The translations under genes and the position numbers were made by a program. A stretch of 64,000 nucleotides of DNA from an uncultured Anaeroplasmatales bacterium (GTDB lineage Bacteria; Bacillota_I; Bacilli_A; Acholeplasmatales; WRBM01), in contig CAYZIB010000003.1 in NCBI GenBank assembly GCA_964478425.1, positions 13,663 through 77,662 of the forward strand. Reading direction: 5' to 3'. Below, one piece after another: positions 1,622 to 48,616 of this stretch (its first letter is position 1; every line of letters begins with the position of its first letter). Below the pieces are notes generated by a model. The model had not been told where the DNA came from, ran no database searches, and was given only the letters and a program-made list of their open reading frames with translations.

Positions 1622-1698
1622 TGGCGCGCCTGGCAGAGATCGAATCCACAACCTTTTGATCCGTAGTCAAACGCTCTATCCAGTTGAGCTACAGGCGC
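1622..1698 (-). tRNA. tRNA-Arg (anticodon ACG)
   Basis: Hand-folded 77-nt cloverleaf: acceptor GCGCCTG/CAGGCGC, D arm GCTC..GAGC, anticodon stem TTTGA/TCAAA with loop CTACGGA, T loop TTCGATC, encoded CCA. Confidence 0.9.
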
Positions 1699-1702
1699 AT
1701 AA

Positions 1703-1779
1703 TGGCGGTCTGGACGAGACTTGAACTCGCGATCTCCAGTGTGACAGACTGACATGTTAACCAACTACACCACCAGACC
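1703..1779 (-). tRNA. tRNA-Asp (anticodon GTC)
   Basis: Hand-folded 77-nt cloverleaf: acceptor GGTCTGG/CCAGACC, anticodon loop CTGTCAC, T arm GCGAG-TTCAAGT-CTCGT, encoded CCA. Confidence 0.9.
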
Positions 1780-1871: not shown

Positions 1872-3284
1872 ATGAAAAAGTTTTTAATTATAATTTTATG
1901 TTTATTTTTTGTAGGATGTAAAAATAATCCGAGTGATAAAAATGATGATAAAAATGATGAAAATGATATAATAGATAATAAAGTAGAAACAGTTCCTATA
2001 ATAAAAATAAATACAGATGAGGCTATAACATCCAAATATAATTATGTAAATGGAAAATTTAATTTAGAAGATGATATTATAGAAGAATATAATTTATCTG
2101 ATATAGATTTAAAAATTAGAAGAAGAGGAAATAGTTCTAATGGAATGCCCAAAAAATCTTATAGATTAAAATTTAATAAAAAAATAGATTTATTTGGATT
2201 TGGAGAAGCAAAAAATTGGGTATTGATTGCTAATTATATGGATAGATCATTAATGAGAAATTATTATGCATATACTATGTCTAGTATGATGGAAAATTTA
2301 GAATTTACTCCAAGATTAAAATATGTAGAAGTCTATATTAATGATGAATATATGGGATTATATACTTTATGTGATCAAATTCAAGCTCATGAAATAAGGG
2401 TAGATATTAAAGCTGATTTAGAAAGTTTAGGAGATGAAATACCATTTTTTGTTGAATTTGATTATTATACATTTCAATATAAACATAGTTTAGCAGATCC
2501 ATATTATTACTATGATCATTTTCCAGATGAAGATTTAGATAATTTACCTGATGCACCTTTAGAAAATGTTGATTATTTTGTAATTGGTAATAAAGAAAAC
2601 TATAATTCTAATGTTGGTAAAACTGATTATGGTTATCCTTTTTCTATGAAATATCCAGAAACATTGACTGAAGTTACAGAAAATCAAGCAAATTATATTA
2701 AAAATTATATAAATGAAACTAATTCTGCAATTTTAAATAATAAAGATATTGATAAATATATTGATATTAAATCATTTGCTGAATATTTTGCTATTCAAGA
2801 ATTATTTAAAAATCCAGATATTGGAGTTTCTTCTATTTATTATTATAAGAGAAATGGTGAGTTATTAAAAGCAGGTCCAATTTGGGATTTTGATTTATCG
2901 GTTGGTAATGCAAAGTATATTCAATATGGATATAATGGATTTTTAGCTGATTCAAATAGGGTTAATGATTGGTATGTACATTTAAGATTAAATAAAGAAT
3001 TTAAAAAAGAATTTGTTAATTGCTTGAATAATATTAAAGATAATTTATTACCAAAATTAATCAAAGAAGCTGAAAAACAAAAAGAAGTTATAAAAGAAGC
3101 ATATTATAGAAATTTTAGTAAATGGCAATTATTAGGAATATATGATGGCACAAGGGATTGGGCTGCACCTGAAGAGTTAATAAAATTAACAACAATAGAT
3201 GAACATGTTGATTATATTAATAATTATTTAACTAAAAGATGTAAATCATTATTAAAAAGTTTAGAGTTTGGGTATAAACAATGA
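1872..3284 (+). CDS. CotH kinase-family lipoprotein
   Basis: Signal peptide with lipobox (LFFVGC). CotH-like blocks are present: KKSYRLKF, NWVLIANYMDRSLMRNY, GPIWDFDLSVGN. Confidence 0.65.
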   Translation: MKKFLIIILCLFFVGCKNNPSDKNDDKNDENDIIDNKVETVPIIKINTDEAITSKYNYVNGKFNLEDDIIEEYNLSDIDLKIRRRGNSSNGMPKKSYRLKFNKKIDLFGFGEAKNWVLIANYMDRSLMRNYYAYTMSSMMENLEFTPRLKYVEVYINDEYMGLYTLCDQIQAHEIRVDIKADLESLGDEIPFFVEFDYYTFQYKHSLADPYYYYDHFPDEDLDNLPDAPLENVDYFVIGNKENYNSNVGKTDYGYPFSMKYPETLTEVTENQANYIKNYINETNSAILNNKDIDKYIDIKSFAEYFAIQELFKNPDIGVSSIYYYKRNGELLKAGPIWDFDLSVGNAKYIQYGYNGFLADSNRVNDWYVHLRLNKEFKKEFVNCLNNIKDNLLPKLIKEAEKQKEVIKEAYYRNFSKWQLLGIYDGTRDWAAPEELIKLTTIDEHVDYINNYLTKRCKSLLKSLEFGYKQ

Positions 3285-4831
3285 AAAAAATAATATTAGA
3301 GTTAAAAATTAATGTCGAAGATAACTTAAATAATAAATTAATAGAGTTATTAGGTAAAAATAATTTAATAAAATATGAAATTTTAAAAAAATCTATTGAT
3401 GCAAGAAAAAAAAATAATATCTTATTTTTATATAAAATAAGAGCATATGTTAATAATCCATTAAATTATAATATAGAAGAATTAAAAGAAGAAACTAAAT
3501 TAAAAGTTTTAAAAAATAAAAATGAATTACCAATTATAATAGTTGGATTAGGACCATCCGGATTGTTTAGTGCTTTAGAACTTGCTAAATCTAATGCTAA
3601 TGTAATTGTAATTGAAAGAGGTAAAGGTGTATTAGAAAGAGTAAAAGATGTAAACTTATTTAATAAAACAGGAGTTATAAACAATAATTCTAATATATCT
3701 TATGGAGCTGGTGGTGCTGGAACTTTTTCAGATGGTAAGTTAAATTCAGGAATTAAAAATAAAGATATTAATTATGTTTTAAAAACATTTCATGAATTTG
3801 GGGCAAAAGAAGATATTTTATATGATAGTATGCCTCATATTGGAAGCGATTATTTAATAAATGTTGTATTAAATATGACTAATTATTTAGAACAATTAGG
3901 AGTTAAAATATTATATCAACATGAATTAATTGATTTATTATTTGAAAATAATATTGTTGTTGGGTGTAAAGTGAAATTTGATGATCAAATTATAAATTTA
4001 CCATGTTCAAATATTATACTTGCTAGTGGACATGCATGTTTTGATACATTTTTAATGTATGAAAAATATTTTAATATGGTACCAAAAGCATTTTCTATGG
4101 GATTAAGAATTGAACATCCTCAAAAATTAATAAATCAAATTCAGTATGGTGATAAATATGCAAATGTATTAGGTAGTGCTAATTATAAACTAAATACTAA
4201 AGTATTAGATAGAGGTGTATATACTTTTTGTATGTGCCCTGGTGGAGAAGTAGTTATTAGTAGTATCGATAATAATTCAATATGTGTTAATGGAATGAGT
4301 TATCAAAAAAGAAATTTAGAAAATGCTAATAGCGCAATTTTAGTAGATGTTAAAGTAAGTGATTATTATAAAAACAATGTATTAGATGGATTTAGATTTA
4401 GAAATTATTATGAAAAAAAAACATTTGAATTAACGAATAAAATGTATGCTCCAGTCCAATTATTAAAAGATTTTTTAAATAATAAAGCAACAACCAAAAT
4501 TAAAAGTGTTAATCCAAGTGTAAAACCTGGATATGTATTAAGTGATTTAAATTTATGCTTACCAAATTTTGTTTCTGAAGCAATAAAAAAAGGAATATAT
4601 GATTTTGATAAAAAAATGAAAGGATTTTTATTTGATGATGCTGTATTAACAGGAATAGAAGCAAGATCATCTTCCCCTGTAAGAATATTAAGAGATGAGA
4701 ATTTTTGTTCTAATATTAAAAATGTTTTTCCGTGTGGAGAAGGTTGTGGATATGCAGGTGGAATTACTTCTGCAGCATGTGATGGAATAAAAGTAGCAAG
4801 AAAAATTATAGATATATTAAATGAAGAGTAA
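3281..4831 (+). CDS. FAD-dependent protein (COG2509-type NAD(P)/FAD oxidoreductase)
   Basis: Rossmann motif IIIVGLGPSGLFSA. Family blocks CMCPGGEVV, GIEARSSSPVRI and PCGEGCGYAGGITSAA are present. The start overlaps the upstream stop (ATGA). Confidence 0.7.
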   Translation: MKKIILELKINVEDNLNNKLIELLGKNNLIKYEILKKSIDARKKNNILFLYKIRAYVNNPLNYNIEELKEETKLKVLKNKNELPIIIVGLGPSGLFSALELAKSNANVIVIERGKGVLERVKDVNLFNKTGVINNNSNISYGAGGAGTFSDGKLNSGIKNKDINYVLKTFHEFGAKEDILYDSMPHIGSDYLINVVLNMTNYLEQLGVKILYQHELIDLLFENNIVVGCKVKFDDQIINLPCSNIILASGHACFDTFLMYEKYFNMVPKAFSMGLRIEHPQKLINQIQYGDKYANVLGSANYKLNTKVLDRGVYTFCMCPGGEVVISSIDNNSICVNGMSYQKRNLENANSAILVDVKVSDYYKNNVLDGFRFRNYYEKKTFELTNKMYAPVQLLKDFLNNKATTKIKSVNPSVKPGYVLSDLNLCLPNFVSEAIKKGIYDFDKKMKGFLFDDAVLTGIEARSSSPVRILRDENFCSNIKNVFPCGEGCGYAGGITSAACDGIKVARKIIDILNEE

Positions 4832-4863: not shown

Positions 4864-5511
4864 TTATAATGAGTTATTTATATTAAAATTAATTTTCTTT
4901 TTATAAATATTAATTAAACTATCACCAATTAATATAGCAATCAAAGATATACATGTTCCTTTTAATAAATTAAATGGAAAATATATAAAACATATTGCAA
5001 GAAAATAATTATTTATACCTGTCATACTTTTTAGTGCATTTAATGTATTTTCATTTAAACCAATACCGAAAAAAGAAAATTCACCTAAAAATAATGGAGT
5101 TAAAATTGTGTAATTAGCTAAAGTCATAATTGTAGATACTAAAATTACAACTAAACTATATTTTAATATTTTTGATTTTATTGAATTTCCTTTAATGATT
5201 TTGTTTAAAAACCACAAACAAAATACATATGATAAAGATGCGATTAAAGCTGTAACATGTGCGACAAAAGGAATTGCGCCACCTGTTTGTGGACCCCTAA
5301 TAAGTAAATCGCAAAGTGTTTTTAATAAGGCAACTATAAATGCTTCTTTAAATCCAAATAATAAAAATGCAAATATAACTACAAAATCACTAAATTCGAT
5401 TTTTAAAAATGGAGCAATCGGATATGGAATTTGAATATAACTCATTAAAATTACTCCAATTGCAGATAATAATGCTAAAATTGTAAGTTTTAAAATACTC
5501 TTTTTCTTCAT
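4864..5511 (-). CDS. ribU: ECF transporter S component, riboflavin-specific
   Basis: 215-aa protein with about six TM helices and ECF S-component features. It lies directly downstream of an FMN riboswitch. An ecfA1A2T module sits at 18-20.6 kb. Confidence 0.8.
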   Translation of the reverse strand: MKKKSILKLTILALLSAIGVILMSYIQIPYPIAPFLKIEFSDFVVIFAFLLFGFKEAFIVALLKTLCDLLIRGPQTGGAIPFVAHVTALIASLSYVFCLWFLNKIIKGNSIKSKILKYSLVVILVSTIMTLANYTILTPLFLGEFSFFGIGLNENTLNALKSMTGINNYFLAICFIYFPFNLLKGTCISLIAILIGDSLINIYKKKINFNINNSL

Positions 5512-5531
5512 ATTTCCTCTTCTTTCTATAA

Positions 5532-5680
5532 TAAAAAAAACCCTTAAAAGGGCAATGAAAAAAGATAAAATTTTCTTCTTCCATCTAGACTTTAACTATC
5601 GGTTCTAGAATTTAACTAGATCAGCTTGCGCTCGCGGACTTTACCGCCGGTCTGGAATTACACCATGCCCTGAAGTTGTT
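5532..5680 (-). promoter_or_regulatory. FMN riboswitch (RFN element) with short terminator-like expression platform
   Basis: Minus strand reads CTTCAGGGCATGGTGTAATTCCAGACCGGCGGTAAAGTCCGCGAGCGCAAGCTGATCTAGTTAAATTCTAGAACCGATAGTTAAAGTCTAGATGGAAGAAG, which matches the conserved RFN core (aptamer about 5574-5678). A GCCC..GGGT hairpin plus T8 lies at about 5535-5553. Confidence 0.9.
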
Positions 5681-5683
5681 ATT

Positions 5684-5875: not shown

Positions 5876-6931
5876 ATGAAAAAATTATTATTAACATTAT
5901 TCGTTGCTTTTTCATTAACTGCATTAGTTGGTTGTGGAAGTAAAGCAAAAGAATACAAATTAGGTATGGGTGTTGTAGTAACTGATTCTGAATCAAAAGA
6001 TATAACAGCTCAAATTGATGCAACAGTTGCAACAGTTGTTTTAGATAGCAATAATAAAATCGTTGCATGTCGTTTAGATGTTGCTCAAAATAAAATTACA
6101 GTTAGTTCTTTAGGAAAAATTACTGTTCCTACTTCATTTAAATCAAAAGTTGAATTAGGTGATGATTATGGTATGTCTAATGCTGCAGGTTGGGGTATGG
6201 ACTGGAATGGTGATGGTGTTTCTTTAGAATGGTATAAACAAGCACAAGCTTTTGAAAACTATGTTGTTGGTAAAACAGCTGAAGAAGTAAAAAATATGCC
6301 TACACAAGTAGTTGAAGGTCATGGATATATTATTTCTAGTGAAGCTGATTTATTAGCTGCTGGATGTACTATCCAAATTACTGATTTTAAAGAAGCTGTT
6401 TATAAAGCATGTACTGATGAACAAGGTGTTTCATTTAAAACTTCTAAAAAATTTACATTAGGTGTTGGTGTTACATCATTTGATGATGGTTCAACAAGTG
6501 CAACAGCTGATGCAAATGGAACAATTAAAGTTTATTCTGATTTTGGTGCTACAGTTTTAGTTGATGGTAAAATCGCTGCTGCTTTAAATGATGCAATTCA
6601 ACCTCAATTTACTGTTACAGCAGATGGTACTTATACTTTTGCGTTTACAGCAACAAAAAGAGAATTAAAAGAAAATTATGGTATGGAAGCATATGGTCAA
6701 AATTTAGATGGTAATGGTGATGGTATTGTTAAAGAATGGTACGTACAATCATTAGCATTCTCTAAACATGTTGTTGGTATGACTGGTGAACAAGTTAAAA
6801 ACATGGAAACTAAAGCTAATGCAATTAATTACCAAATGTCAACTGATAAAGATTTATTAGCTGCAGGATGTACTATTCAAATTACTGATATTAAAGCTGT
6901 TGTTGCTAAAGCTTGCACTAACGCTCGTTAA
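5876..6931 (+). CDS. Lipoprotein with two tandem FMN_bind-like repeats (putative extracytoplasmic flavoprotein)
   Basis: Lipobox LVGC. There are two ~155-aa repeats, each ending in an identical DLLAAGCTIQITD block. The layout resembles FMN_bind (beta-strand core, then W-Y-x-Q-x-x-A-F-x-x-(Y/H)-V-V-G, then the motif). It is the first gene of the apbE-rnf operon. Confidence 0.55.
   Translation: MKKLLLTLFVAFSLTALVGCGSKAKEYKLGMGVVVTDSESKDITAQIDATVATVVLDSNNKIVACRLDVAQNKITVSSLGKITVPTSFKSKVELGDDYGMSNAAGWGMDWNGDGVSLEWYKQAQAFENYVVGKTAEEVKNMPTQVVEGHGYIISSEADLLAAGCTIQITDFKEAVYKACTDEQGVSFKTSKKFTLGVGVTSFDDGSTSATADANGTIKVYSDFGATVLVDGKIAAALNDAIQPQFTVTADGTYTFAFTATKRELKENYGMEAYGQNLDGNGDGIVKEWYVQSLAFSKHVVGMTGEQVKNMETKANAINYQMSTDKDLLAAGCTIQITDIKAVVAKACTNAR
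5954..6928 (+). repeat. Intragenic tandem duplication (repeat 1 at 5954-6418, repeat 2 at 6452-6928)
   Basis: Protein repeats aa 27-181 and aa 193-351 align along their length. The C-terminal block is near-identical even at nucleotide level (gatttattagctgc[t/a]ggatgtactat[c/t]caaattactgat). Confidence 0.8.
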
Positions 6932-6945
6932 TATTAAATTTGTAA

Positions 6946-8004
6946 ATGAGAAATACTACTAAAGTAAAAAAGTATTTCTGTTTGTTAATATTTATATGGC
7001 AACTTGTACTTTTTACAGGTTGCCATATTTCTAATAATAAAGAAAAAAATATTTGGCAAATACAATCATTTAATTGCTTTGATACTGTTTCAACAATCTA
7101 TAGTTATAGCTATGAAACAAAAGAAAGTTTTAATGAAAATGCAACAAGTGCTCTTGAATTATTATCTGAATACCATAAATTATTCGATATATATTATGAA
7201 TATCAAGGAATAAATAATTTAAAGACAATTAATGATAATCCAACTAAAGAAATAAAAGTAGATAAAAAATTAATTGATTTTCTTCTTTATACTAAAGAAA
7301 TATATGAATTAACAAATGGAAAAACAAATGTAATGTTAGGGCCTGTTTTAAAGTTATGGCATGATGCAAGAGAAAATGCAAGTTATAATCCAAATAATAA
7401 GTATATTCCATCTATTACTGAATTAGAAACTGCTAATTTATATACTGATATTAATTATTTAATAATTGATGAACAAAATAATACTATTAAACTAGATAAT
7501 CCTAATGCAAGAATTGATGTGGGAGCATTAGGAAAAGGATATGCAACAGAAATGGTTGCTAAAATGTTAATAGAAAAAGGAATAACAAGTTATGTTTTAG
7601 ATATTGGTGGAAATATTCGAATTATTGGTAGTAAACAAGATGGAACAGGATGGAATACTGGTATTAGAAGTCCTTTTGATAAGAGTAAATATGCTTTATA
7701 TTTAAATATAAAAGATATATCTTGTGTTACATCTGGAGATTATGAAAGATATTTTATTTATGAAAATAATAAATATCATCATATAATAGATCCTGTTACT
7801 TTAATGCCAGCAGATTATTTTTCATCGGTCACAATTTTATCAGAAAATAGTGGACTTGCTGATGCGTTATCAACTGCATTATTTTCTATGAATTATGAAG
7901 AAGGAAGATTACTAGTTGATAGTTTAGATAATGTTGAAGCTGTATGGATTTATAAAAATGGAAATATTATATATACTGATGGAGTAAATCCTATTAATTT
8001 ATAA
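6946..8004 (+). CDS. apbE: FAD:protein FMN transferase (ApbE family) lipoprotein
   Basis: Lipobox LFTGC. ApbE blocks GALGKGYA, DIGGNI, TSGDYERYF, HHIIDPVT and ADALSTALF are present. Confidence 0.9.
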   Translation: MRNTTKVKKYFCLLIFIWQLVLFTGCHISNNKEKNIWQIQSFNCFDTVSTIYSYSYETKESFNENATSALELLSEYHKLFDIYYEYQGINNLKTINDNPTKEIKVDKKLIDFLLYTKEIYELTNGKTNVMLGPVLKLWHDARENASYNPNNKYIPSITELETANLYTDINYLIIDEQNNTIKLDNPNARIDVGALGKGYATEMVAKMLIEKGITSYVLDIGGNIRIIGSKQDGTGWNTGIRSPFDKSKYALYLNIKDISCVTSGDYERYFIYENNKYHHIIDPVTLMPADYFSSVTILSENSGLADALSTALFSMNYEEGRLLVDSLDNVEAVWIYKNGNIIYTDGVNPINL

Positions 8005-8020: not shown

Positions 8021-9373
8021 ATGTTTAAAAAGAAAAATATTTCATCTTTACATTTACCACATAATAAAAATACAGCCGCATGTGTCCCTACAAGAATTAA
8101 AGATCCAAAAGAAGTAATATTACCTATGGATATGCATTCAGGACATGTAGCTGAACCTGTAGTAAATGTTGGTGATTATGTAAAAATTGGTCAATTAATA
8201 GCAAGAGAAGAAGGAAGATTTTCTTCTCCAGTACATGCTACTATATCAGGTACTGTAACAAAAATTGAACCGTTAAAAAGAGCTAATGGTAAAGAAGTAT
8301 TAGCTATTTATATTGAAAATGATTTTAAAAATGTAAAAGATGATTTAAAAGCCCCTGTTATTAATAACTGCGACGAGTTTTTAGAAGCTATTAGACAAAG
8401 TGGATGTGTTGGATTAGGTGGAGCAGCATTCCCTACATGGGCTAAATTAAATGAAATGCGTAATGGAGAATATACAGTTGATACAGTTTTAGTTAATGCA
8501 GCTGAATGTGAACCATATATAACAAGTGACCATAGAATGATGGTTGATAATCCAAACTTAATAGTTGATGGTGTTGAATATTTAAGAAAATATATGCATG
8601 AATATTTAAGTAATGCTAAATTTAAAATTTGTATTGAAAAAAATAAACCTGATGCTATTGAAACATTAAAAAAAGCTTTTAGTGGAAAAGATTATGTAGA
8701 AATAGTTGAATTAAAAGCAATTTATCCACAAGGAGCAAAACAAGTAATGCTTTATAATGCAACAGGAAGAGTAAGTATTGCTGGGAAAAGATTTCCTTAT
8801 TTCCATGCAATAATTATAAATGTAAGCTCACTTGCTAAAGTTGCAGAATATTTAAATACAGGTATGCCTCTTACAGAAAGAATCGTTACTGTAGATGGAC
8901 CGGCAGTAGCTAATCCAAAAAATTTAATTGCACCTATTGGTACACCTATAAATAATTTATTAGAAGAAACAGGATTAAAAAATGAAGCTGCTAAAGTTGT
9001 AGTAGGTGGTCCAATGAATGGTAATGCAGTTTTAAATACAACAGATCCAATTGTTAAAGTTTCAAATGCAATATTAGTATTTGATGAAAAAACTGCAGTT
9101 TTACCAGATCCAACTGTATGTATTCATTGTGGAAGATGTATTGATAAATGTCCAATTAATATAAATGTTCCAAAAGTTGAACTTGCAATGCGAGTTAAAG
9201 ATGATGAATTAAAAGAAAAATTATTAATTGAAACAGGAGTAAGACAATGCGTTGATTGTGGATGTTGTTCTTATGTATGTCCTGCTAATCGTCATTTATT
9301 ATCAACAAATCAAGATGCTAAATGGTGGTTAAAACAATATGATAAAGCTAAAAAAGAAGGAGGAAATAGATAA
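8021..9373 (+). CDS. rnfC: Rnf complex subunit C
   Basis: GLGGAAFPT nucleotide-binding block, and two ferredoxin motifs CIHCGRCIDKCP and CVDCGCCSYVCP. Confidence 0.9.
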   Translation: MFKKKNISSLHLPHNKNTAACVPTRIKDPKEVILPMDMHSGHVAEPVVNVGDYVKIGQLIAREEGRFSSPVHATISGTVTKIEPLKRANGKEVLAIYIENDFKNVKDDLKAPVINNCDEFLEAIRQSGCVGLGGAAFPTWAKLNEMRNGEYTVDTVLVNAAECEPYITSDHRMMVDNPNLIVDGVEYLRKYMHEYLSNAKFKICIEKNKPDAIETLKKAFSGKDYVEIVELKAIYPQGAKQVMLYNATGRVSIAGKRFPYFHAIIINVSSLAKVAEYLNTGMPLTERIVTVDGPAVANPKNLIAPIGTPINNLLEETGLKNEAAKVVVGGPMNGNAVLNTTDPIVKVSNAILVFDEKTAVLPDPTVCIHCGRCIDKCPININVPKVELAMRVKDDELKEKLLIETGVRQCVDCGCCSYVCPANRHLLSTNQDAKWWLKQYDKAKKEGGNR

Positions 9374-10347
9374 TGGAAAATCTTCATGTTTCTGCTGCTC
9401 CTCATATTAATAGTGGTGCTACAACACATAATGTAATGAAAGATGTTGCAATTGCTTTATTACCAGCAAGTATAGCTGCAGTTGTAATATTTGGATTACA
9501 AGCTTTATTAATTATATTAGTATGTGTTTTAAGTGCAGTTTTAAGTGAATATGTATTTAATTTAATTACAAAGAAAAAACAAACATTATATGATTTTAGT
9601 GCTGTTGTTACAGGATTAATATTAGCATTAAACTTAAGTACTAAAGTCCCTTTATGGCAATGTGCAATAGGAAGTGTATTTGCAATTATTGTTGTTAAAT
9701 GTTTATTTGGTGGTTTAGGAAAAAATATTGCAAACCCTGCAATAGCTGCAAGAGTATTTTTACTTTTTGCATTTGGTTTAACAGTTGCTGGTGGTGCACT
9801 TCCAATTTTAGGATCAGATAAAAGTTTTTTTGGAATTGCTTTTGGAAATAATACAGGTGATATTATTGTAAGTGGAGCAACACCATTAGTTAATTTAAAA
9901 AATGGAGAATATAATTTATTAACATTATTTTTAGGTAATCATGGTGGTACAATCGGTGAAACTTGTGTTATTGCTTTACTTTTAGGCTATATTTATTTAG
10001 TATATCGTAAAGTTATTAAATGGTATGTACCTTTTGCATTTGTTATGACTGTATTTGTTTTATATTTTGTTAAAACAGGTGATTTAGGAATTTCACTTGC
10101 ACAAGTATTAGCTGGTGGATTATTATTTGGGGCTATATTTATGGCAACAGATTATGTTACAACTCCATTATCTAATTTAGGAAAAGTAGTATTTTGTATT
10201 GGATGTGGAATATTAACATTTGCATTAAGAACTGGATTTTTAGGTTCATATCCTGAAGGTGTTTCTATTTCAATATTATTTATGAATATGTTAACACCAT
10301 TAATTGAAAAATTTACAACTCCGAAAACATTAGGAGGTATTAAATAA
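9373..10347 (+). CDS. rnfD: Rnf complex subunit D
   Basis: Polytopic NqrB/RnfD family protein with the flavinylation motif VSGATPL. Its start overlaps the rnfC stop. Confidence 0.9.
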   Translation: MENLHVSAAPHINSGATTHNVMKDVAIALLPASIAAVVIFGLQALLIILVCVLSAVLSEYVFNLITKKKQTLYDFSAVVTGLILALNLSTKVPLWQCAIGSVFAIIVVKCLFGGLGKNIANPAIAARVFLLFAFGLTVAGGALPILGSDKSFFGIAFGNNTGDIIVSGATPLVNLKNGEYNLLTLFLGNHGGTIGETCVIALLLGYIYLVYRKVIKWYVPFAFVMTVFVLYFVKTGDLGISLAQVLAGGLLFGAIFMATDYVTTPLSNLGKVVFCIGCGILTFALRTGFLGSYPEGVSISILFMNMLTPLIEKFTTPKTLGGIK

Positions 10348-11636
10348 TGAATAATAAAAAAGATTTATTTAAAGCAAGTATTATTATGGTATTAGTTGTT
10401 TTAATTTTTTCATTTGCAATGTGGGGATTAAATTTTTATACTGCACCATTAATTGAAAAAAACAAAGCAGGAAGTGCTAATGAAGTTTTAAATGCTGTTA
10501 TGCCTAATAATAATGGATTTACAGATATAACATCTACATTAACAATCAATTCTGAATCAGGTGTTTATGAAGTTCATAAAGAAAATAGTGGTGCTGGATA
10601 TGTTATTAAAGCACAAAAACAAGGATATTCAAAACTTGTAAGTGCTGTTTGTGGGATATCTAGTGATGGTAAAATTGTTGGATTAACATTTGATTCAAAT
10701 GGTGATTTTGATGTACCGAGTGCTTCAATTAATCAATTTATTGGACTTGATTCAGCATTAGCAGGTGTTGAATTAAAAAATGGAGCAACTTATTCAACTA
10801 CTGCATTAAAAGAATTAGTTGAAGCTGCATTTGATTTATTAGTTCAAAATAATATGATTACTGCAGGTGTTAAATCAGATGAACAAGTATTAGAAGAATT
10901 GTTACCTACTGTATTTAATAGTTTTGAAAAAGGATCTGAATTACCTTCTTCAGGTAATATTATAAAAGCTTATAAAGCATCTAATGAAACTGGTTTTGCT
11001 TATTTTGTAAGAAATAATGAAGAAACATTATTAGTAATTGTAAATAATGATTTATCAGCTAAATGTTATAAACCAACTCATAATGAAACAAATAATACTT
11101 ATGGATTAGAAGATGTTACTAATAATAATCAAAGTGTTATTGATCTTGTGATTAGTGATGTTGCTGATAAAGTTAGTAGTTTTAATACTAAATTAGAAAA
11201 TAAAGTTAAAACTTTATATAATGATGCAAGTGAAATTGAATTTATTACTTTAAATTCATTTAATACGATTGCTAAAGCATTAAAATTTAAAACAAATAAT
11301 AATTTATATTATGCATTCTATTCAAGAAGTATAAATTCATTTAATAGTACAATAATGGAAGTATTTGTAATAATTGATGAAGATGGTAAAATAGTTGAAA
11401 CTAGTGTTTCTCCATTCTTCCAAGAAGAACAATATTTCTTTGCGGTTAAAGATTTTAATAGTAAAAATTATACAGATTCATTAATAGGAAGAACAGATGA
11501 AATTATCTCTAATAATTTATTTGATAAAGATAATGAATTATATATTACAGGAGCTACATGTTCAACTAATGGATTAAAGAATGCTTATAAAGATGCATTT
11601 AATGTATTTAATAACATTAAAGGAGGTAATAATTAA
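10347..11636 (+). CDS. rnfG: Rnf complex subunit G, double-length with two FMN-binding motifs
   Basis: N-terminal TM anchor. Two FMN_bind-type endings are present: NGATYSTTALKELVEAA (T148) and TGATCSTNGLKNAYKDA (T404). The gene occupies the rnfG position between rnfD and rnfE. Confidence 0.8.
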   Translation: MNNKKDLFKASIIMVLVVLIFSFAMWGLNFYTAPLIEKNKAGSANEVLNAVMPNNNGFTDITSTLTINSESGVYEVHKENSGAGYVIKAQKQGYSKLVSAVCGISSDGKIVGLTFDSNGDFDVPSASINQFIGLDSALAGVELKNGATYSTTALKELVEAAFDLLVQNNMITAGVKSDEQVLEELLPTVFNSFEKGSELPSSGNIIKAYKASNETGFAYFVRNNEETLLVIVNNDLSAKCYKPTHNETNNTYGLEDVTNNNQSVIDLVISDVADKVSSFNTKLENKVKTLYNDASEIEFITLNSFNTIAKALKFKTNNNLYYAFYSRSINSFNSTIMEVFVIIDEDGKIVETSVSPFFQEEQYFFAVKDFNSKNYTDSLIGRTDEIISNNLFDKDNELYITGATCSTNGLKNAYKDAFNVFNNIKGGNN

Positions 11637-12232
11637 TGAAAATTTTAAGTAAATATTTATTAAGAGGAACTCCTGCGTTATTAATAACATTAGGAGCAGG
11701 ATTTGTAATGGCATCAAGTGCTGATGTTAGAGCAGGTTTAGGTATGGGTGTATGTATTACTATTGCTTTATTATTAAGTTCAATAGTAGTTTCTGGTTTA
11801 AGAAATGTTATACCAGAACGTTATCATCTTCCAATATATATATTAATTATGACAGGATTTGTTTCAATAATTGACATGTTAATGCAAGCATGGTTCCCTG
11901 AAGTATGTAATATGCTTGGAGTACATCTTGCAGCATTAAGTGTTTCAGCAGTAGTTTATCGTGATTGTGAAGAAGTTGCTGGTGTAAGTACAGAACAAAA
12001 ATCAATTTTAACAGCTTTACTTACTGGATTATTATTTTTAGCAATCATGGTTGTTTGTGCATTATTCCGTGAAGTATTAGGTAATGCATCTTTCTGTGGT
12101 ATTGAAATTGCGTTTTTAAAAGATTATAAAATTAGTGCATTAACTTCTGCATTTGGTGGATATTTACTTCTTGCAATTTGTGTTGCAGTATTAAAGAAAA
12201 TTGGTGCATTAATAACTAAGGAGGCTAAATAA
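11636..12232 (+). CDS. rnfE: Rnf complex subunit E
   Basis: 198-aa polytopic NqrD/RnfE-like protein, in the conserved position. Confidence 0.85.
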   Translation: MKILSKYLLRGTPALLITLGAGFVMASSADVRAGLGMGVCITIALLLSSIVVSGLRNVIPERYHLPIYILIMTGFVSIIDMLMQAWFPEVCNMLGVHLAALSVSAVVYRDCEEVAGVSTEQKSILTALLTGLLFLAIMVVCALFREVLGNASFCGIEIAFLKDYKISALTSAFGGYLLLAICVAVLKKIGALITKEAK

Positions 12233-12234
12233 TT

Positions 12235-12783
12235 ATGACATTTGAAGTTATTATTGGAATATTATTAGCTGGTATTTTATCAAATAACTATGCATTACTT
12301 CATTTTTTAGGAACAGGCGCTGTTATTGAAAATGAAAGATCAGATAAAAAATCATTAATTATAGGTTTAGGAACAACTCTTGTAATGGTTTTATCTACAT
12401 TAATTACATGGCCTTTAAATAAATATCTATTAAAAAATGTTCCATATTTACAAACAATGGCATTTGTAATTGTATTATTAATAGTAATTGAATTAATTCA
12501 CTTATATACTAAAAAACATCTTGAATCTTATTGTAAAGTTGATTTTATGAAATTTACAATAAATGGTGCTGTTTTAGGTTTATGTATTCATAATACAAGT
12601 TTAATGTTTTTAGAAGCATTATTAACTGCATTTAGTGTTGGAATTGGATTTACATTAACATTAATTGTATTTAGTGAATTAGAACAAAAAATAGATAAAG
12701 AAGCAGTGCCAAAATCATTTAGAGGATTACCTATTTTATTATTAATCGCTGGTTTAATGGCATTAGCGTTAATTGCATTTTAA
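12235..12783 (+). CDS. rnfA: Rnf complex subunit A
   Basis: 182-aa NqrE/RnfA-like protein (LSNNYALLHFLG.. start), in the conserved position. Confidence 0.85.
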   Translation: MTFEVIIGILLAGILSNNYALLHFLGTGAVIENERSDKKSLIIGLGTTLVMVLSTLITWPLNKYLLKNVPYLQTMAFVIVLLIVIELIHLYTKKHLESYCKVDFMKFTINGAVLGLCIHNTSLMFLEALLTAFSVGIGFTLTLIVFSELEQKIDKEAVPKSFRGLPILLLIAGLMALALIAF

Positions 12784-13133
12784 TGAAAAAAAAAGATATA
12801 ATTTTAATAGTTTCAATTTGTATTATAGCTTTATTAAGTTATGTTTTAATTCTTAATAATAAAAAACCAGGAGCAGAAGTAATTATTAGAGTTGATGGTG
12901 TTGAAGTTGCAAGATATAATTTAGATATTGATGGTACTTATGAATTAAATGGTGGTACTAATATATTAGTTATAAAAGATAAAGAAGCTTATTTAATTGA
13001 TGCAAATTGTCCTGATAAGTTATGTATAAACCAAGGTAAAATAAGTAAAAATGGAGAAACAATAACTTGTTTACCTAATAAATTAACAGTTACAGTCGTT
13101 GGAAATAAAAATGATGTGGAGATAATAAGCTAA
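12783..13133 (+). CDS. NusG domain II-containing (DUF1312-like) membrane-anchored protein
   Basis: N-terminal TM helix followed by the characteristic CPDKLCINQG...ITCLPNKL pattern. Its ATG overlaps the rnfA stop by 1 nt. Confidence 0.65.
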   Translation: MKKKDIILIVSICIIALLSYVLILNNKKPGAEVIIRVDGVEVARYNLDIDGTYELNGGTNILVIKDKEAYLIDANCPDKLCINQGKISKNGETITCLPNKLTVTVVGNKNDVEIIS

Positions 13134-13616
13134 ATGAAAAATCAAAAGATTGGATTACTTGGAGTTTTTACTGCTTTAGCAATGATTTTATCATTTGTTG
13201 AAAGTCAAATTCCTTCACTAGTTCCTGGAATTAAACTAGGATTACCTAATATTGCTATAATTATAATACTTTATCTATTTAGTGCTAAGGAAGCTTTTAT
13301 TGTAAGTATAATAAGAGTAATTCTAACAAGTTTATTATTTACATCTATTCCTACAATGATTTATAGTTTAGCAGGAGCAATATTAAGTTTAATATTCATG
13401 ATTATTTTAAAAAAATCGTTTGCTGTTATAACTGTTAGTATGATAGGAGCAATATTTCATAATATTGGTCAGATTTTAGTTGCAATTTTAATAACCAATA
13501 CTAATAGTTTAATATATTATTTACCTGTTTTAATTATAAGTGGATTAATATCAGGTATAATAATTGGACTAATTTCTGGGAATGCTGTTAATAAAATTAA
13601 AATGATTGAATTATAA
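13134..13616 (+). CDS. Gx transporter family protein (formerly heptaprenyl diphosphate synthase component I-like)
   Basis: 160-aa polytopic protein with a PGIKLGLPNI block. It starts immediately after the preceding stop. Confidence 0.65.
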   Translation: MKNQKIGLLGVFTALAMILSFVESQIPSLVPGIKLGLPNIAIIIILYLFSAKEAFIVSIIRVILTSLLFTSIPTMIYSLAGAILSLIFMIILKKSFAVITVSMIGAIFHNIGQILVAILITNTNSLIYYLPVLIISGLISGIIIGLISGNAVNKIKMIEL

Positions 13617-28189: not shown

Positions 28190-29593
28190 ATGCGTAAATT
28201 TGATACAGAAGTTCAATATCTTAAATATCGCGTTTTAAAATCTGTTTCTAAAATGGCATTTGATAATACATTAGTAAAAGGATTATCAGATATTCCAAAA
28301 GAAATTATACCTGGGCCAAAACCTAGTACAAGATGTTGCATATATAAAGAACGAGCAATAGTTAATGAAAGAGTTAAATTAGCATTGGGAGGGAATAAAA
28401 ATAATCCTAATGTTATTGAAGTAATAGATATTGCTTGTGATGAATGCCCTGTTGCAGGATATAAAGTAAGTGATTCCTGCAGAGGGTGTATTGCTCATAG
28501 ATGTGAAACTGTATGTAAGGTAGGAGCGATCTATTTTGATAAAAATCAAAAAGCTCATATTGATAAAGATAAATGTATAGAATGTGGAGCATGTTCAAAA
28601 GTATGTCCATATTCAGCAATTACTAATAGTAAAAGACCATGTGAAAATGCATGTAAAGTAGGAGCAATTAGTATGGATGCTAATAGGACAGCTTCTATTA
28701 ATAATGATAAATGTATAGAATGTGGAGCATGTGTTTATCAATGTCCATTTGGGGCTATAATGGATAAATCATTTATATTAGATGTTATTGAAATGTTAAA
28801 AACAGAAGAAGTATGTGCAATAATTGCTCCTTCTATTGCTGCTCAATTTACTCAAGTAACATTTAAACAAGTTATTACAGGAATAAAACAATTAGGGTTT
28901 AAGCATGTTTATGAGGCTGCGTTAGGCGCTGATTTAGTTAGTTATTATGAAGCAAAAGAATTAGTTGAAAAAGGATTTTTAACTACATCATGTTGTCCTG
29001 CGTTTGTTAATTATATTAAAAAATATTATCCTAATTTAGTTCCTAATATATCAAGTAACTTAAGTCCAATGGCAATTATGGGTAAAGTAATAAAAGAACA
29101 AAACCCGAATATTAAAACTGTTTTTATTGGACCTTGTACAGCAAAAAAAGGCGAATTTAGAACTGATAAAGTAAAAAACTATATTGATTCAGTTATAACT
29201 TTTGAAGAATTATATGCATTATTTGGGGCTAAAAATATTGAATTAGAAAGTTTAGAAGAAACAGAAATTAGTGATGCTACAGTATTTGGTAGATCATTTG
29301 CAAGATCTAATGGAGTTATTGAAGCTGTAAAAGAATCTATTAAAGAACAAAATTTAGATTTTGATTTTAAACCAATAAGTTGTGATGGAATTGAAAATTT
29401 AAAAATTGCCTTATTAAAAGCTGGTAAGGGATTATTACCTAATAATTTTATTGAAGGTATGGTATGTAATGGAGGTTGTATTGGTGGACCTTGTGCTGTT
29501 ACTCATGCTTTAAAAGATAGAACTCAGATAGATAAATATGCAAGCGAATCAAAAAAGAATAATATAATTGAGAACATTAAAAATATTAAATAA
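28190..29593 (+). CDS. [FeFe]-hydrogenase family protein (monomeric type, multiple N-terminal Fe-S motifs)
   Basis: H-cluster motifs TSCCPAF, GPCTAKKGE and MVCNGGCIGGPC, plus two CxxCxxCxxxCP ferredoxin motifs and extra Cys clusters. RBS GGGAGG. Confidence 0.8.
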   Translation: MRKFDTEVQYLKYRVLKSVSKMAFDNTLVKGLSDIPKEIIPGPKPSTRCCIYKERAIVNERVKLALGGNKNNPNVIEVIDIACDECPVAGYKVSDSCRGCIAHRCETVCKVGAIYFDKNQKAHIDKDKCIECGACSKVCPYSAITNSKRPCENACKVGAISMDANRTASINNDKCIECGACVYQCPFGAIMDKSFILDVIEMLKTEEVCAIIAPSIAAQFTQVTFKQVITGIKQLGFKHVYEAALGADLVSYYEAKELVEKGFLTTSCCPAFVNYIKKYYPNLVPNISSNLSPMAIMGKVIKEQNPNIKTVFIGPCTAKKGEFRTDKVKNYIDSVITFEELYALFGAKNIELESLEETEISDATVFGRSFARSNGVIEAVKESIKEQNLDFDFKPISCDGIENLKIALLKAGKGLLPNNFIEGMVCNGGCIGGPCAVTHALKDRTQIDKYASESKKNNIIENIKNIK

Positions 29594-45079: not shown

Positions 45080-48000
45080 ATGACAAAAAAAGAAATCAAA
45101 GCGATGGATGGTAACCAAGCTGCCGCTTATGCTTCTTATGCTTTTACAGAAGTAGCTGGTATATATCCTATCACTCCTTCATCACCTATGGCTGAGTATA
45201 CAGATGAATGGGCTAGTCAAGGAATGAAGAACTTATTTGGTATGCCTGTAAAAATTGTTGAAATGCAATCAGAAGCAGGAGCTGCTGGAACTGTTCATGG
45301 TTCATTACAAGCAGGTGCATTAACAACAACTTATACTGCATCTCAAGGGTTATTATTAAAAATACCTAATATGTATAAAATAGCTGGACAATTATTACCA
45401 GGTGTAATTCATGTTTCAGCAAGAGCTTTAGCTGCTCAAAGTTTAGCTATTTTCGGAGATCATCAAGATGTTATGGCTTGTAGACAAACTGGATTTGCAA
45501 TGCTTGCAACTTCATCAGTTCAACAAGTTATGGATTTAGCTGGTGTTGCTCATTTAAGTGCAATTAAATCAAGAGTACCTTTCTTACATTTCTTTGATGG
45601 ATTTAGAACTTCTCATGAAGTTAATACTGTTGAGGTAATGCCTTATGAAGTATTCGATCGTTTATTAGATAGAGAAGCTGTTAAAAAATTTAGAGAAGAT
45701 TGCTTAAATCCTGCTAATCCTAAAACAAGAGGAACAGCACAAAATGACGATGTTTATTTTCAAACAAGAGAATTACAAAATTCATATTACAAAAATGTTC
45801 CAGATGTTGTAAATAGTTATATGGAAGAAATCTCTAAAGAAACAGGAAGAGATTATAAACCATTTACTTATTATGGAGCAAAAGATGCAACTGATATTAT
45901 AGTTGCTATGGGATCTGTAACTGAAGCAATTAAAGAAGTTGTAGATTATATGGTTTCTAAAGGAGAAAAAGTTGGGGTTATAACTTGTCACTTATATCGT
46001 CCATTTAGTGAAAAATATTATTTTAATGTTTGTCCATCTACAGTTAAAAGAATTGCTGTATTAGATAGAACTATTGAACCAGGTTCAATTGGAGAACCAT
46101 TATATTTAGATGTTAAAGCATTATATTATGGAAAAGAAAATGCACCAGTAATTATTGGTGGAAGATATGGATTATCTTCTAAAGATACAACTCCTGATAT
46201 GATTTATGCTATTTATAAAAATTTAAGAGGAGAACAAAAAGATAGATTTACTGTTGGTATTAATGATGATGTTTCATATTCTTCATTAGATTGCAGCGAA
46301 GAAATTGATGTTCAAGATAAAGATACAACTGAATTATTATTCTTTGGATTAGGTTCAGATGGTACTGTTGGTGCATGTAAAAATACATCAAAAATTATTG
46401 GGGACAATACAGATTTATATTCTCAAAGCTATGCAGCATATGACTCTAAAAAATCTGGTGGATCAACAAGATTACATTTAAGATTTGGTAAAAACCCAAT
46501 TAGAAGTACATATTTAGTTAATAAACCTCACTTTGTATCATGTTCAACTGATGCATATTTAGGAAAATTTGATATGATTAAGGGTTTAAGAGATGGTGGA
46601 ACATTCTTATTAAATACTGTTACTCCTAAAGAAGAAATTGAAGAATTCTTACCTAATAGTGTTAAAATTCAATTAGCTAAAAAACATGCTAAATTCTATA
46701 TTATAAATGCAGTTGATTTAGCTGTTCAAATTGGTCTTGGTAGAAGAACAAATACAATTATGCAAAGTGCGTTCTTTAAATTAAATGAACATATTATGCC
46801 ATATGAAAAAGCTCAAGAATTAATGAAAAAATACGCTGCTAAAACATATGCTAAAAAAGGTGAAGCAATTATTAAATTAAATTATGATGCAATTGACGCA
46901 GGTGCTAGTGGTTTAGTTGAAATTGAAGTTAAAGATTCATGGGCTAATTTAACACCAGAAACTAAAACTGTTGATTTAAATAGACCTGAATTTGTTAGAG
47001 AAATTGCTGATGTTATAAATGCTATTGAAGGAGATTCATTACCTGTAAGTGCATTTAAAAAATATCCTGATGGACATATGATTAATGGTTCTGCAGCATA
47101 TGAAAAACGTGGTGTTGCTAATGATGTTCCAAGTTGGATAAGTGAAAATTGTATTCAATGTAACCAATGTGCATTTGTTTGTCCACATGCAACAATTAGA
47201 CCATTCCTAGCAAACGAAGAAGAAGTTAAAAATGCAAGTGAAGGAACAAAATTCTTAAAAGCAGTTGGAAAAGGATTAGAAACATATAAATATACATTAC
47301 AAGTATCAGTATTAGATTGTACTGGATGTGGAGTTTGTGTAAGTGTTTGTCCTGCTCCAAAAGGAAAAGCATTACAAATGAAACCAATTCATGAAGAAAT
47401 TGCTGCTGGTAGTCAAGAAATTGCTAATTATTTTTACAATAATGTTTCATATAAAGATCAAGTTACTGGAAAAGAAACTGCTAAAAATGTTCAATTTGCT
47501 CAACCATTATTTGAATTTTCAGGTGCTTGTGCAGGATGTGGAGAAACTCCATATGTAAAAGCAGTAAGTCAATTATTTGGTGATCATATGATCGTAGCAA
47601 ACGCAACTGGATGTTCTTCTATTTATGGTGGATCATATCCAAGCTCACCTTATACAAAAAATAAAGAAGGTAGAGGAGTTGCGTGGGCAAACTCATTATT
47701 TGAAGATAACGCAGAATTTGGATTCGGTATGCATATAGCATATGAAACAATGCGTGATAGATTACAAACAATTTTATTAAATAATAAAGAAAATATGCCA
47801 AGTGAATTAGTAGAATTAGTAGAAGCTTGGGCAAATAATAGAAATAGTTATGATGAAACTAAGAAATTAGCTCCAAGTATTATTTCTGGATTAGAAAATA
47901 TCGATGCTGATTTTGCTAAAGACGCATTAGAATTAAAAGATTATTTAGTTAAAGCATCTCAATGGATTTTTGGTGGAGATGGATGGGCTTATGACATCGG

Positions 48001-48616
48001 ATATGGTGGATTAGACCATGTTATAGCTAATAATGAAGATGTAAATATTTTAGTAGTAGATACAGAAGTTTACTCAAATACTGGTGGACAAAGTTCTAAA
48101 TCAAGTCGTCCAGCTTCAATAGCTAAATTTACTGCTGCTGGTAAAAAAGCTAGAAAGAAAGATTTAGCTGCTATTGCAATGAGTTATGGACATGTATATG
48201 TTGCAACTATTTCACATGGTGCTTCTCAAGCTCAAGTTATTAAAGCATTAAAAGAAGCTGAAAGCTATAATGGACCAAGTTTAGTTATTGCATATTCTCC
48301 ATGTATTGCACATGCTATTAAAAATGGATTAGTTAATTCACAAAAACAAGCTAAATTAGCAACTGAATGTGGATATTGGCCAACATTTAGATATGACCCA
48401 AGAAGAGAAGAATTAGGATTAAATCCTTTCCAAATGGATTCTAAAGAACCTAATTGGGATTTATATTTTGATTTTTTAATGAGCGAAGGAAGATATGCTC
48501 AATTATCAAAAATCAATCCTACTCATGCTGAAGAATTATTAAAAGCTAACTTAGAAGATGCAAAACGTCGTTATAAAATGTATCAACGCTATTTAGCTAT
48601 GGATTATTCAAAATAA
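45080..48616 (+). CDS. nifJ: Pyruvate:ferredoxin (flavodoxin) oxidoreductase, single-polypeptide type
   Basis: 1178 aa. Two ferredoxin motifs CIQCNQCAFVCP and CTGCGVCVSVCP, and the TPP site GGDGWAYDIG. RBS GGAGGG. Confidence 0.95.
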   Translation: MTKKEIKAMDGNQAAAYASYAFTEVAGIYPITPSSPMAEYTDEWASQGMKNLFGMPVKIVEMQSEAGAAGTVHGSLQAGALTTTYTASQGLLLKIPNMYKIAGQLLPGVIHVSARALAAQSLAIFGDHQDVMACRQTGFAMLATSSVQQVMDLAGVAHLSAIKSRVPFLHFFDGFRTSHEVNTVEVMPYEVFDRLLDREAVKKFREDCLNPANPKTRGTAQNDDVYFQTRELQNSYYKNVPDVVNSYMEEISKETGRDYKPFTYYGAKDATDIIVAMGSVTEAIKEVVDYMVSKGEKVGVITCHLYRPFSEKYYFNVCPSTVKRIAVLDRTIEPGSIGEPLYLDVKALYYGKENAPVIIGGRYGLSSKDTTPDMIYAIYKNLRGEQKDRFTVGINDDVSYSSLDCSEEIDVQDKDTTELLFFGLGSDGTVGACKNTSKIIGDNTDLYSQSYAAYDSKKSGGSTRLHLRFGKNPIRSTYLVNKPHFVSCSTDAYLGKFDMIKGLRDGGTFLLNTVTPKEEIEEFLPNSVKIQLAKKHAKFYIINAVDLAVQIGLGRRTNTIMQSAFFKLNEHIMPYEKAQELMKKYAAKTYAKKGEAIIKLNYDAIDAGASGLVEIEVKDSWANLTPETKTVDLNRPEFVREIADVINAIEGDSLPVSAFKKYPDGHMINGSAAYEKRGVANDVPSWISENCIQCNQCAFVCPHATIRPFLANEEEVKNASEGTKFLKAVGKGLETYKYTLQVSVLDCTGCGVCVSVCPAPKGKALQMKPIHEEIAAGSQEIANYFYNNVSYKDQVTGKETAKNVQFAQPLFEFSGACAGCGETPYVKAVSQLFGDHMIVANATGCSSIYGGSYPSSPYTKNKEGRGVAWANSLFEDNAEFGFGMHIAYETMRDRLQTILLNNKENMPSELVELVEAWANNRNSYDETKKLAPSIISGLENIDADFAKDALELKDYLVKASQWIFGGDGWAYDIGYGGLDHVIANNEDVNILVVDTEVYSNTGGQSSKSSRPASIAKFTAAGKKARKKDLAAIAMSYGHVYVATISHGASQAQVIKALKEAESYNGPSLVIAYSPCIAHAIKNGLVNSQKQAKLATECGYWPTFRYDPRREELGLNPFQMDSKEPNWDLYFDFLMSEGRYAQLSKINPTHAEELLKANLEDAKRRYKMYQRYLAMDYSK

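Follow-up and report, generated by a model that had tools for sequence, protein, structure and literature searches.

The window analysed here is a stretch of 64,000 nucleotides (positions 13,663 to 77,662 of contig CAYZIB010000003.1) from an uncultured Anaeroplasmatales bacterium; its G+C content is 24.4%, and translation table 11 suits it well. It contains a gene cluster related to rnf operons, in which the rnfG gene encodes a protein about twice as long as usual. This double-length RnfG is real, and two flavins are very probably bound to it covalently. The reading that we favour, with moderate confidence, is that it belongs to an Rnf-derived complex in which flavin mononucleotide (FMN) would be attached to both Thr148 and Thr404 of RnfG, electrons from NADH would be sent outward, and the original function of a ferredoxin:NAD+ oxidoreductase would have been given up.

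Rnf is seen as a ferredoxin:NAD+ ion pump that works reversibly and whose set of cofactors is fixed. It has been described with one covalent FMN per RnfG, and the cofactors of its transmembrane subunits have been called strictly conserved (2025 review, PMC12174285).

Architecture of the long RnfG

The rnfG gene lies between rnfD and rnfE, its expected place in an rnf operon according to gene order and the Pfam and NCBIfam calls; it shares one base with the stop codon of rnfD, and rnfE adjoins it downstream. An earlier note, made by a model from the letters of this DNA, had described the product as a 429-residue protein of about twice the normal length with one N-terminal transmembrane (TM) anchor and two candidate flavinylation sites. 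The open reading frame (ORF), its translation and its hydropathy agree with that description. The two peptides quoted in the note are present, and Thr148 (codon ACT, nt 10788-10790) and Thr404 (codon ACA, nt 11556-11558) stand where it had placed them. The estimate of length also held, solved RnfG chains having 187-207 amino acids (aa) and one NqrC chain 251 aa.

Residues ~5-33 were the sole hydrophobic segment of the protein (19-residue hydropathy windows >1.6). Since no further hydrophobic stretch follows, and given the topology of RnfG, the rest of the protein would lie outside the cytoplasmic membrane. The earlier note had spoken of periplasm-side flavins; "extracytosolic" fits better because the relatives are Clostridia and Bacilli-type metagenome-assembled genomes (MAGs), that is, lineages taken to be single-membrane bacteria.

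The presence of two FMN_bind modules, also proposed in the earlier note, was borne out by profile methods. The Pfam family FMN_bind (PF04205) matched the whole protein with 37.9 bits in two stretches. With the C-terminal half alone it gave 24.3 bits at residues 337-418, over the 22-bit cut-off, and the match of the N-terminal half covered the full profile (positions 1-76 of 77). Comparison of the two modules by hhalign gave a probability of 98.6% (E 5e-16), with T148 aligned with T404. Their homology was shown by profile comparison because BLASTP of the halves against each other gave too little, a 20-residue match with E 0.034. The N-terminal 180 residues matched the solved RnfG 7zc6_G (phmmer, E 8.6e-8), and residues 5-182 could be aligned by phmmer with 9eri_G, TM helix included. 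The idea that one FMN_bind domain is interrupted by an unrelated insertion was also considered and was rejected, since module N alone covers the Pfam profile.

Modelling of RnfG alone with AlphaFold (AF2), a check proposed in the earlier note, yielded a confident model with two FMN_bind-type folds (predicted local distance difference test, pLDDT, 90.1; predicted template modelling score, pTM, 0.79; 51 homologues used). A helix covers residues 4-51 of the model, and a plan of five strands, a loop and a helix occurs twice, at residues 58-167 and 295-425. The last helix of each FMN_bind module begins with its candidate Thr (T148 or T404), that of T404 spanning residues 404-425. The top Foldseek matches of the model in the PDB were the RnfG chains 7zc6_G, 9eri_G and 8rb9_G, with probability 1.0, followed by NqrC.

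Between the two modules the model has a six-strand domain with two helices (residues 195-290), part of what is here called module M (residues 173-292). When the pieces of RnfG were scanned singly, module M had neither a Pfam match nor a flavin motif. By hhalign it resembled module N over 39 columns, in the sheet of N only, with a probability of 73% that is weak and not significant; the probability was 0.4% against module C, and the comparison with the repeats of the lipoprotein described below was negative. In the model, module M is thus a separate beta-rich domain and not a plain linker.

Conservation of the two candidate flavinylation sites

A protein search revealed 66 protein clusters of RnfG relatives. 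Homologue length had been listed for checking in the earlier note: most of these relatives have 400-450 aa and several have 630-668 aa. We also scanned species-representative genomes with an alignment of 13 RnfG sequences as the query, which gave 80 loci. Nearly all of them are from gut or rumen MAGs labelled Clostridia, Oscillospiraceae, Christensenellaceae or Eubacteriales, and Coprobacillus sp. CAG:698 is also among them.

The positions of T148 and T404 are occupied by Thr in the 74 long RnfGs, which are from different species genomes, with one Ser exception per site. Site 1 has the form G-[A/S/C/V]-T (G-C-T in 13 of the proteins) and site 2 is mostly [G/T]-A-T, with Ala before the Thr in 71/74. 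As far as sequence goes, these data support the di-flavin reading of the earlier note: the protein has two FMN_bind modules rather than one interrupted domain, and Thr148, like Thr404, is Thr or Ser in 74/74 long-form homologues.

At least 74 genome assemblies, independent of one another, and the 66 protein clusters show the same architecture, records of the identical protein come from two independent sources, and the AF2 model is confident throughout. The conservation data rule out an artefact, whether a fusion by misassembly or frameshift or a chance repeat of the motif; nothing was found in its favour, and we consider its probability practically negligible.

A more serious alternative is a mono-flavin RnfG, in which one FMN_bind module would be flavinylated and the other would have degenerated into a domain for structure or docking, leaving the protein with a large extracytosolic appendage. 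Several observations weigh for it and against two flavins. Both sites lack the Asp at -6 of the consensus D-x-x-[S/T]-G-A-[S/T], site 1 having Glu at -6 and Asn at -3, and the residue at -1 of site 1 varies (A/S/C/V), with Val or Cys before the Thr in many homologues. The N-terminal half alone (residues 93-162) reached 18.7 bits (E 2.7e-3), under the 22-bit cut-off of Pfam. The NCBIfam model rnfG (TIGR01947) gave 36 bits against a cut-off of 102 and matched residues 12-113 only. Besides, module M shows that this lineage tolerates a beta module without flavin that is possibly degenerate.

On the other side, both sites have Thr or Ser in every one of the 74 long RnfGs, and Ala403 and Gly146 each reach 90% conservation or more. 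In a tested model substrate, mutation of the motif Asp had only a minor effect on flavinylation, and about 50% of flavinylation was left after a G-to-A or A-to-V change (PMC12052999). Natural deviations from the motif are known from solved Rnf subunits as well: the RnfG of A. woodii has GST at the corresponding position (alignment to solved RnfG), and the RnfD of C. tetanomorphum, with its covalent FMN, has TTATPL where the RnfD of the window has SGATPL. The sites GST and TAT are therefore precedents for the motif variants seen among the homologues.

Relatives of ~630-670 aa (proteins P0001, P0002, P0003, P0005 and P0008; loci L002, L021, L027, L030 and L032) also speak against a single flavin. 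They have the plan N-M-N-M-C, module M being duplicated along with N, and retain a candidate Thr in all three modules; judged by their motifs they are candidate tri-flavin RnfGs. Module N is the only one matched by the short RnfGs that classical operons encode. Taken with these data, a mono-flavin RnfG appears quite unlikely to us, and two flavins on the long RnfG remain the reading that we prefer.

Absence of RnfB from the locus and loss of the [2Fe-2S] ligands

RnfB was searched for by phmmer with the RnfB proteins of three classical loci as queries, in the window and, for the related loci, in flanks of up to 10 kb on each side (less at contig ends). No RnfB was found in the window, the search of the organism's own genome being limited to these 64 kb, and none was found in 64 closer related loci within the flanks fetched. 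Of the long-RnfG loci, only 13 distant ones (group B) were found to encode RnfB, its gene lying between rnfA and that of the NusG_II protein.

Four cysteines of RnfA and RnfE, one per half-helix, are the ligands of the intramembrane [2Fe-2S] cluster (PMC12174285). In RnfE of the window the Cys of LGxCP and NC are replaced by Gly22 (nt 11699-11701) and Ala105 (nt 11948-11950), and the ligand sites of RnfA are occupied by Gly28 (nt 12316-12318) and Gly111 (nt 12565-12567). This loss was seen both in the 80-locus alignment and in alignments to solved subunits (for RnfE, 7zc6_E and 9eri_E). All four Cys are kept in 16/16 loci with RnfB, while at least three of the four are lost in 64/64 loci without it, and all four in the window. 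Ligand loss and absence of rnfB coincide without exception across the 80 loci; where the ligands are intact, rnfB adjoins rnfA.

RnfA and RnfE are 57-62% identical to those of the window within the RnfB-less group and 32-35% identical when compared with RnfB-containing loci; the corresponding values for RnfD are 64% and 55%. Judged by these identities, RnfA and RnfE of the RnfB-less group are maintained but shifted. The missing RnfB and [2Fe-2S] ligands had been overlooked in the earlier note, and they change the purpose that the second flavin would serve.

These data have to be weighed against the possibility that the complex is a canonical Rnf with a side branch. RnfB would then be encoded elsewhere, or ferredoxin would dock directly; a centre formed by a Cys triad would replace the lost cluster, and the second flavin would be an optional branch outward. 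Group B, which retains RnfB and all four Cys, demonstrates that the extra RnfG module can coexist with a complete Rnf. The triad in question consists of RnfE C141 (nt 12056-12058) and RnfA C100 (nt 12532-12534) and C117 (nt 12583-12585), C117 being near His119; it is kept in 45/48 loci of the window's subgroup and never occurs in RnfB-containing loci. It might be a relocated redox or metal site that keeps the cytoplasmic input alive. Furthermore, RnfA and RnfE are still under selection, as their identity within the group indicates, and the window encodes enzymes by which reduced ferredoxin would be made (pyruvate:ferredoxin oxidoreductase and an [FeFe] hydrogenase). It should also be mentioned that the RnfB-less loci may descend from one or two loss events, so that the figure of 64/64 does not represent 64 independent events.

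The side-branch explanation is nevertheless unlikely in our opinion. All four canonical ligands of the window are Gly or Ala, and every locus with intact ligands has rnfB, whereas no RnfB was detected in the window or in the fetched flanks of the 64 loci. The Cys triad is one Cys short of a normal cluster site, and another subgroup without RnfB (14 loci) possesses neither the canonical Cys ligands nor the triad. We thus retain the view that the complex has probably lost its ferredoxin-dependent function. In our search of the literature we found no description of an RnfB-less Rnf.

The two-repeat lipoprotein

The first gene of the cluster encodes a lipoprotein with two repeats of ~165 aa that are homologous to each other (hhalign repeat 1 vs repeat 2, 100%, E 7e-48). 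Each repeat ends with [A/S]-G-C-[T/S] followed by a helix; this ending is invariant in 67 cassette homologues and reads A-G-C-T in the window. The wider family comprises 1528 representatives (E <= 1e-3, library at 50% identity), some of them much longer and with up to four matched stretches, and the G-C-[T/S] ending is dominant in the best 148 of them.

Several links, weak but in agreement with one another, connect these repeats with FMN_bind domains. By hhalign, repeat 1 matched module N of RnfG in the sheet region (89.8%) and module C with AGCT placed on AGAT (70.9%). The best sequence match of the lipoprotein in the PDB was 2kzx_A (E 0.13), with AGCT on SGAT, and this fragment is itself assigned to Pfam FMN_bind. 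The size and the two-repeat plan also fit the 'FMN-bind2' proteins (reference NTW96865.1; Huang et al., 2024, PMC11334425), a comparison made by description only. Two results count against such a relationship: the repeats had no Pfam match, and the AF2 model of the lipoprotein (pLDDT 92.2) had no significant Foldseek neighbour in the PDB. It is possible, on the sequence comparisons, that the family is FMN_bind-like with G-C-[T/S] instead of G-A-T.

The lipoprotein gene was found in 66 long-RnfG loci and was absent from three short-RnfG loci. The lipoprotein is likely to be the partner of the extra RnfG module. The earlier note had suggested that RnfG and the upstream lipoprotein together form an unusually long chain of flavins, which is plausible in the light of the motifs described above.

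The gene cassette and its surroundings

All long-RnfG loci have a common cassette of nine genes, which encode the two-repeat lipoprotein, ApbE, RnfC, RnfD, RnfG, RnfE, RnfA, a NusG_II-domain protein and a Gx-type membrane protein (Table 1). In the species-representative genomes the cassette occurs in ~75 species. RnfC is intact, with its NADH/FMN module and two 4Fe-4S motifs (two CxxCxxCxxxC). RnfD (324 aa) matched 7zc6_D with E 2.5e-80, and its flavinylation residue is Thr in 79 of the 80 loci and Ser in one; the only Pfam family found in it was PF03116, with no fused NqrF-type NAD-binding domain (PF00175).

Table 1. Features of the rnf-type cassette, of the long RnfG and of the adjoining transporter gene (positions in the window).
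Feature	Positions	Strand	Evidence and remarks
ECF S-component gene (4864-5511) and FMN riboswitch (5569-5681)	4864..5681	-	Rfam RF00050, 100.3 bits; Pfam ECF_trnsprt, 70.3 bits; weak ECF-ribofla_trS match
Two-repeat lipoprotein	5876..6931	+	Lipobox Cys20; C164/T165 at nt 6365-6370; C332/T333 at nt 6869-6874
ApbE flavin transferase (lipoprotein)	6946..8004	+	Lipobox LFTGC; Pfam ApbE, 215 bits
RnfC	8021..9373	+	TIGR01945, 369.8 bits, over cut-off; Pfam RnfC_N, Complex1_51K, Fer4
RnfD	9373..10347	+	TIGR01946, 283.8 bits, over cut-off; flavinylation site SGAT170 at nt 9880-9882
Long RnfG, 429 aa	10347..11636	+	ATG start, TAA stop; TM anchor, FMN_bind module 1, middle beta domain, FMN_bind module 2
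RnfG, N-terminal TM anchor (residues ~5-33)	10359..10445	+	Hydropathy, AF2 helix, alignment to solved RnfG
RnfG, module N (residues 40-172), RnfG-type FMN_bind	10464..10862	+	Candidate site NGAT148; phmmer, Pfam, conservation
RnfG, module M (residues 173-292)	10863..11222	+	Conserved linker AGVKSDEQ, six-strand beta domain, two helices; AF2 secondary structure
RnfG, module C (residues 293-429), second FMN_bind	11223..11633	+	Candidate site TGAT404; Pfam, hhalign, AF2
RnfE-like subunit	11636..12232	+	Both [2Fe-2S] Cys missing; NCBIfam rnfE 92.9 vs 213.4 cut-off, below
RnfA-like subunit	12235..12783	+	Both [2Fe-2S] Cys missing; NCBIfam rnfA 104.1 vs 229.3 cut-off, below
NusG_II-domain protein	12783..13133	+	N-terminal anchor; PF07009, 104.6 bits
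Hpre_diP_synt_I / Gx-type polytopic membrane protein	13134..13616	+	PF07456, 129.8 bits; conserved at the cassette end

The last two genes appear to be accessories that go with extracytosolic flavinylation in general. Both families, NusG_II and Hpre_diP_synt_I, also occur in unrelated flavinylation clusters listed by Méheust et al. (2021, PMC8238504) in their supplement. In the classical Rnf locus L067 the NusG_II and Hpre_diP_synt_I genes adjoin apbE; in locus L068 the Hpre_diP_synt_I gene has that place.

The energy-coupling factor (ECF) S-component gene, with the riboswitch directly upstream of it, is divergent from the lipoprotein-ApbE-rnf cassette. Its product is a probable riboflavin importer, to judge from the family matches, and would supply flavinylation. 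Two tRNA genes (1625-1779, minus strand) lie upstream of this gene, followed by genes of the CotH-kinase and FAD-depend_C families (1872-4831, plus strand).

Farther away the window encodes an [FeFe] hydrogenase large-subunit-type protein (28190-29593) and pyruvate:ferredoxin oxidoreductase (45080-48616). With these two enzymes the organism would both make and consume reduced ferredoxin, though its Rnf-like complex seems unable to use it.

Comparison with known systems

The window RnfG is like canonical RnfG and NqrC (7ZC6_G, 9ERI_G, 8RB9_G, 8A1U_C) in its TM anchor, linker helix and extracytosolic FMN_bind domain, with a Thr starting the terminal helix. With canonical RnfG it also has in common the gene place between rnfD and rnfE and the service of ApbE. 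Canonical RnfG is half as long; that of the window has in addition the beta domain and another FMN_bind domain, which possesses a Thr of its own. Moreover, canonical RnfG takes its electrons from the [2Fe-2S] cluster of RnfA/E, whereas RnfA/E of the window are without the ligands. In summary of the whole complex, RnfC (NADH/FMN, two 4Fe-4S) and the RnfD Thr of canonical Rnf are kept, and RnfB (in the locus) and the four Cys are not.

The idea of a multi-flavin RnfG is known already, and it is the context, the cassette together with the loss of RnfB and of the ligands, that is unusual. Multi-flavinylated RnfGs were noted and proposed to feed alternative extracytosolic acceptors by Méheust et al. 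(2021, eLife, PMC8238504). The RNF class of that study required RnfB in the cluster, and RnfB-less cassettes therefore fall outside it. The multi-flavinylated proteins of PMC8238504 and of Huang et al. (2024, PMC11334425) are similar to the long RnfG in being extracytosolic, in having more than one FMN_bind domain, in their place in an rnf cluster and in the proposed delivery of electrons to alternative extracytosolic acceptors; these two papers contain no mention of the N-M-C plan, of [2Fe-2S] ligand loss or of a GC[T/S] lipoprotein. We found no earlier description of a cassette without RnfB and [2Fe-2S] ligands and with a G-C-T lipoprotein.

Two other systems are comparable in their logic. 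In the two-subunit NQR/RNF-like systems (Méheust et al., 2021) the predicted flow is likewise one-way, from NAD(P)H through an RnfD-type protein to an extracytosolic flavinylated RnfG-like protein. However, RnfD is fused there to an NqrF-type domain, whereas the window has an unfused RnfD and a separate RnfC as the NADH module, and the RnfD flavinylation Thr, RnfA and RnfE are kept. The NQR/RNF-like systems occur in Actinobacteria or the candidate phyla radiation (CPR), the long-RnfG cassette in gut Firmicutes.

With the flavin-based extracellular electron transfer of Listeria (Ndh2, EetA/B, FmnB, PplA) the cassette has in common an ApbE-type transferase, a two-repeat lipoprotein as the analogue of PplA and a flavin importer nearby. 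The differences are that its nine genes include no Ndh2 or EetA/B (no search was aimed at these or at quinone-biosynthesis genes), that the conduit in the window would be RnfC/D/G, and that the lipoprotein was not detected as FMN_bind and has G-C-T rather than G-A-T. By this comparison the cassette resembles both systems in logic and is a member of neither.

Proposed electron path and its meaning

In canonical Rnf the electrons make a U-turn through the membrane, from RnfB to the [2Fe-2S] cluster in RnfA/E, on to RnfG, and back through RnfD to RnfC. The RnfG flavin shuttles them between the RnfA/E cluster and the flavin of RnfD (2025 review, PMC12174285). With RnfB and all four cluster ligands gone, this path cannot run, and FMN1 of RnfG would exchange electrons only with RnfD.

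We propose that the long RnfG is a membrane-anchored extracytosolic protein with FMN1 on Thr148 of the RnfG-type domain, FMN2 on Thr404 of the paralogous domain and the non-flavin beta domain between them. The ApbE lipoprotein encoded in this operon would be the enzyme that attaches the two flavins. Electrons would then follow a linear path from NADH to RnfC, RnfD (riboflavin, FMN), FMN(T148) and FMN(T404), and further to the lipoprotein, to an external acceptor or to both. The second flavin domain of RnfG would be the new exit of the chain. Ion pumping may or may not be retained by such a complex. Distant relatives keep RnfB and the four Cys and yet possess the long RnfG and the lipoprotein, which suggests that the extra module began as a side branch and that loss of the ferredoxin half followed.

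More tentatively, the cassette may be an unrecognised respiratory or redox-balancing machine, a broader proposal that we hold to be possible but short of probable. It would perform NADH-driven and possibly quinone-independent extracellular electron export with two or three flavins on RnfG and possibly two on the lipoprotein, and the Cys triad would perhaps be a new metal or regulatory site.

In a natural variant that is widespread, the ferredoxin half of Rnf appears to have been lost and the outward-facing flavin subunit to have been extended. For annotation this means that the name ferredoxin:NAD+ oxidoreductase should be withheld from rnf operons in which rnfB and the four Cys are missing. 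If the linear path from NADH to the outside is true, nature would have separated, in this variant, the parts of Rnf needed for transmembrane electron transfer from those needed for ion coupling, and short chains of two or three covalent FMN on one anchored subunit could serve for study as the flavin counterparts of multihaem wires. Many uncultured Clostridia of the gut and rumen, and their relatives, could then dump electrons from NADH outside the cell.

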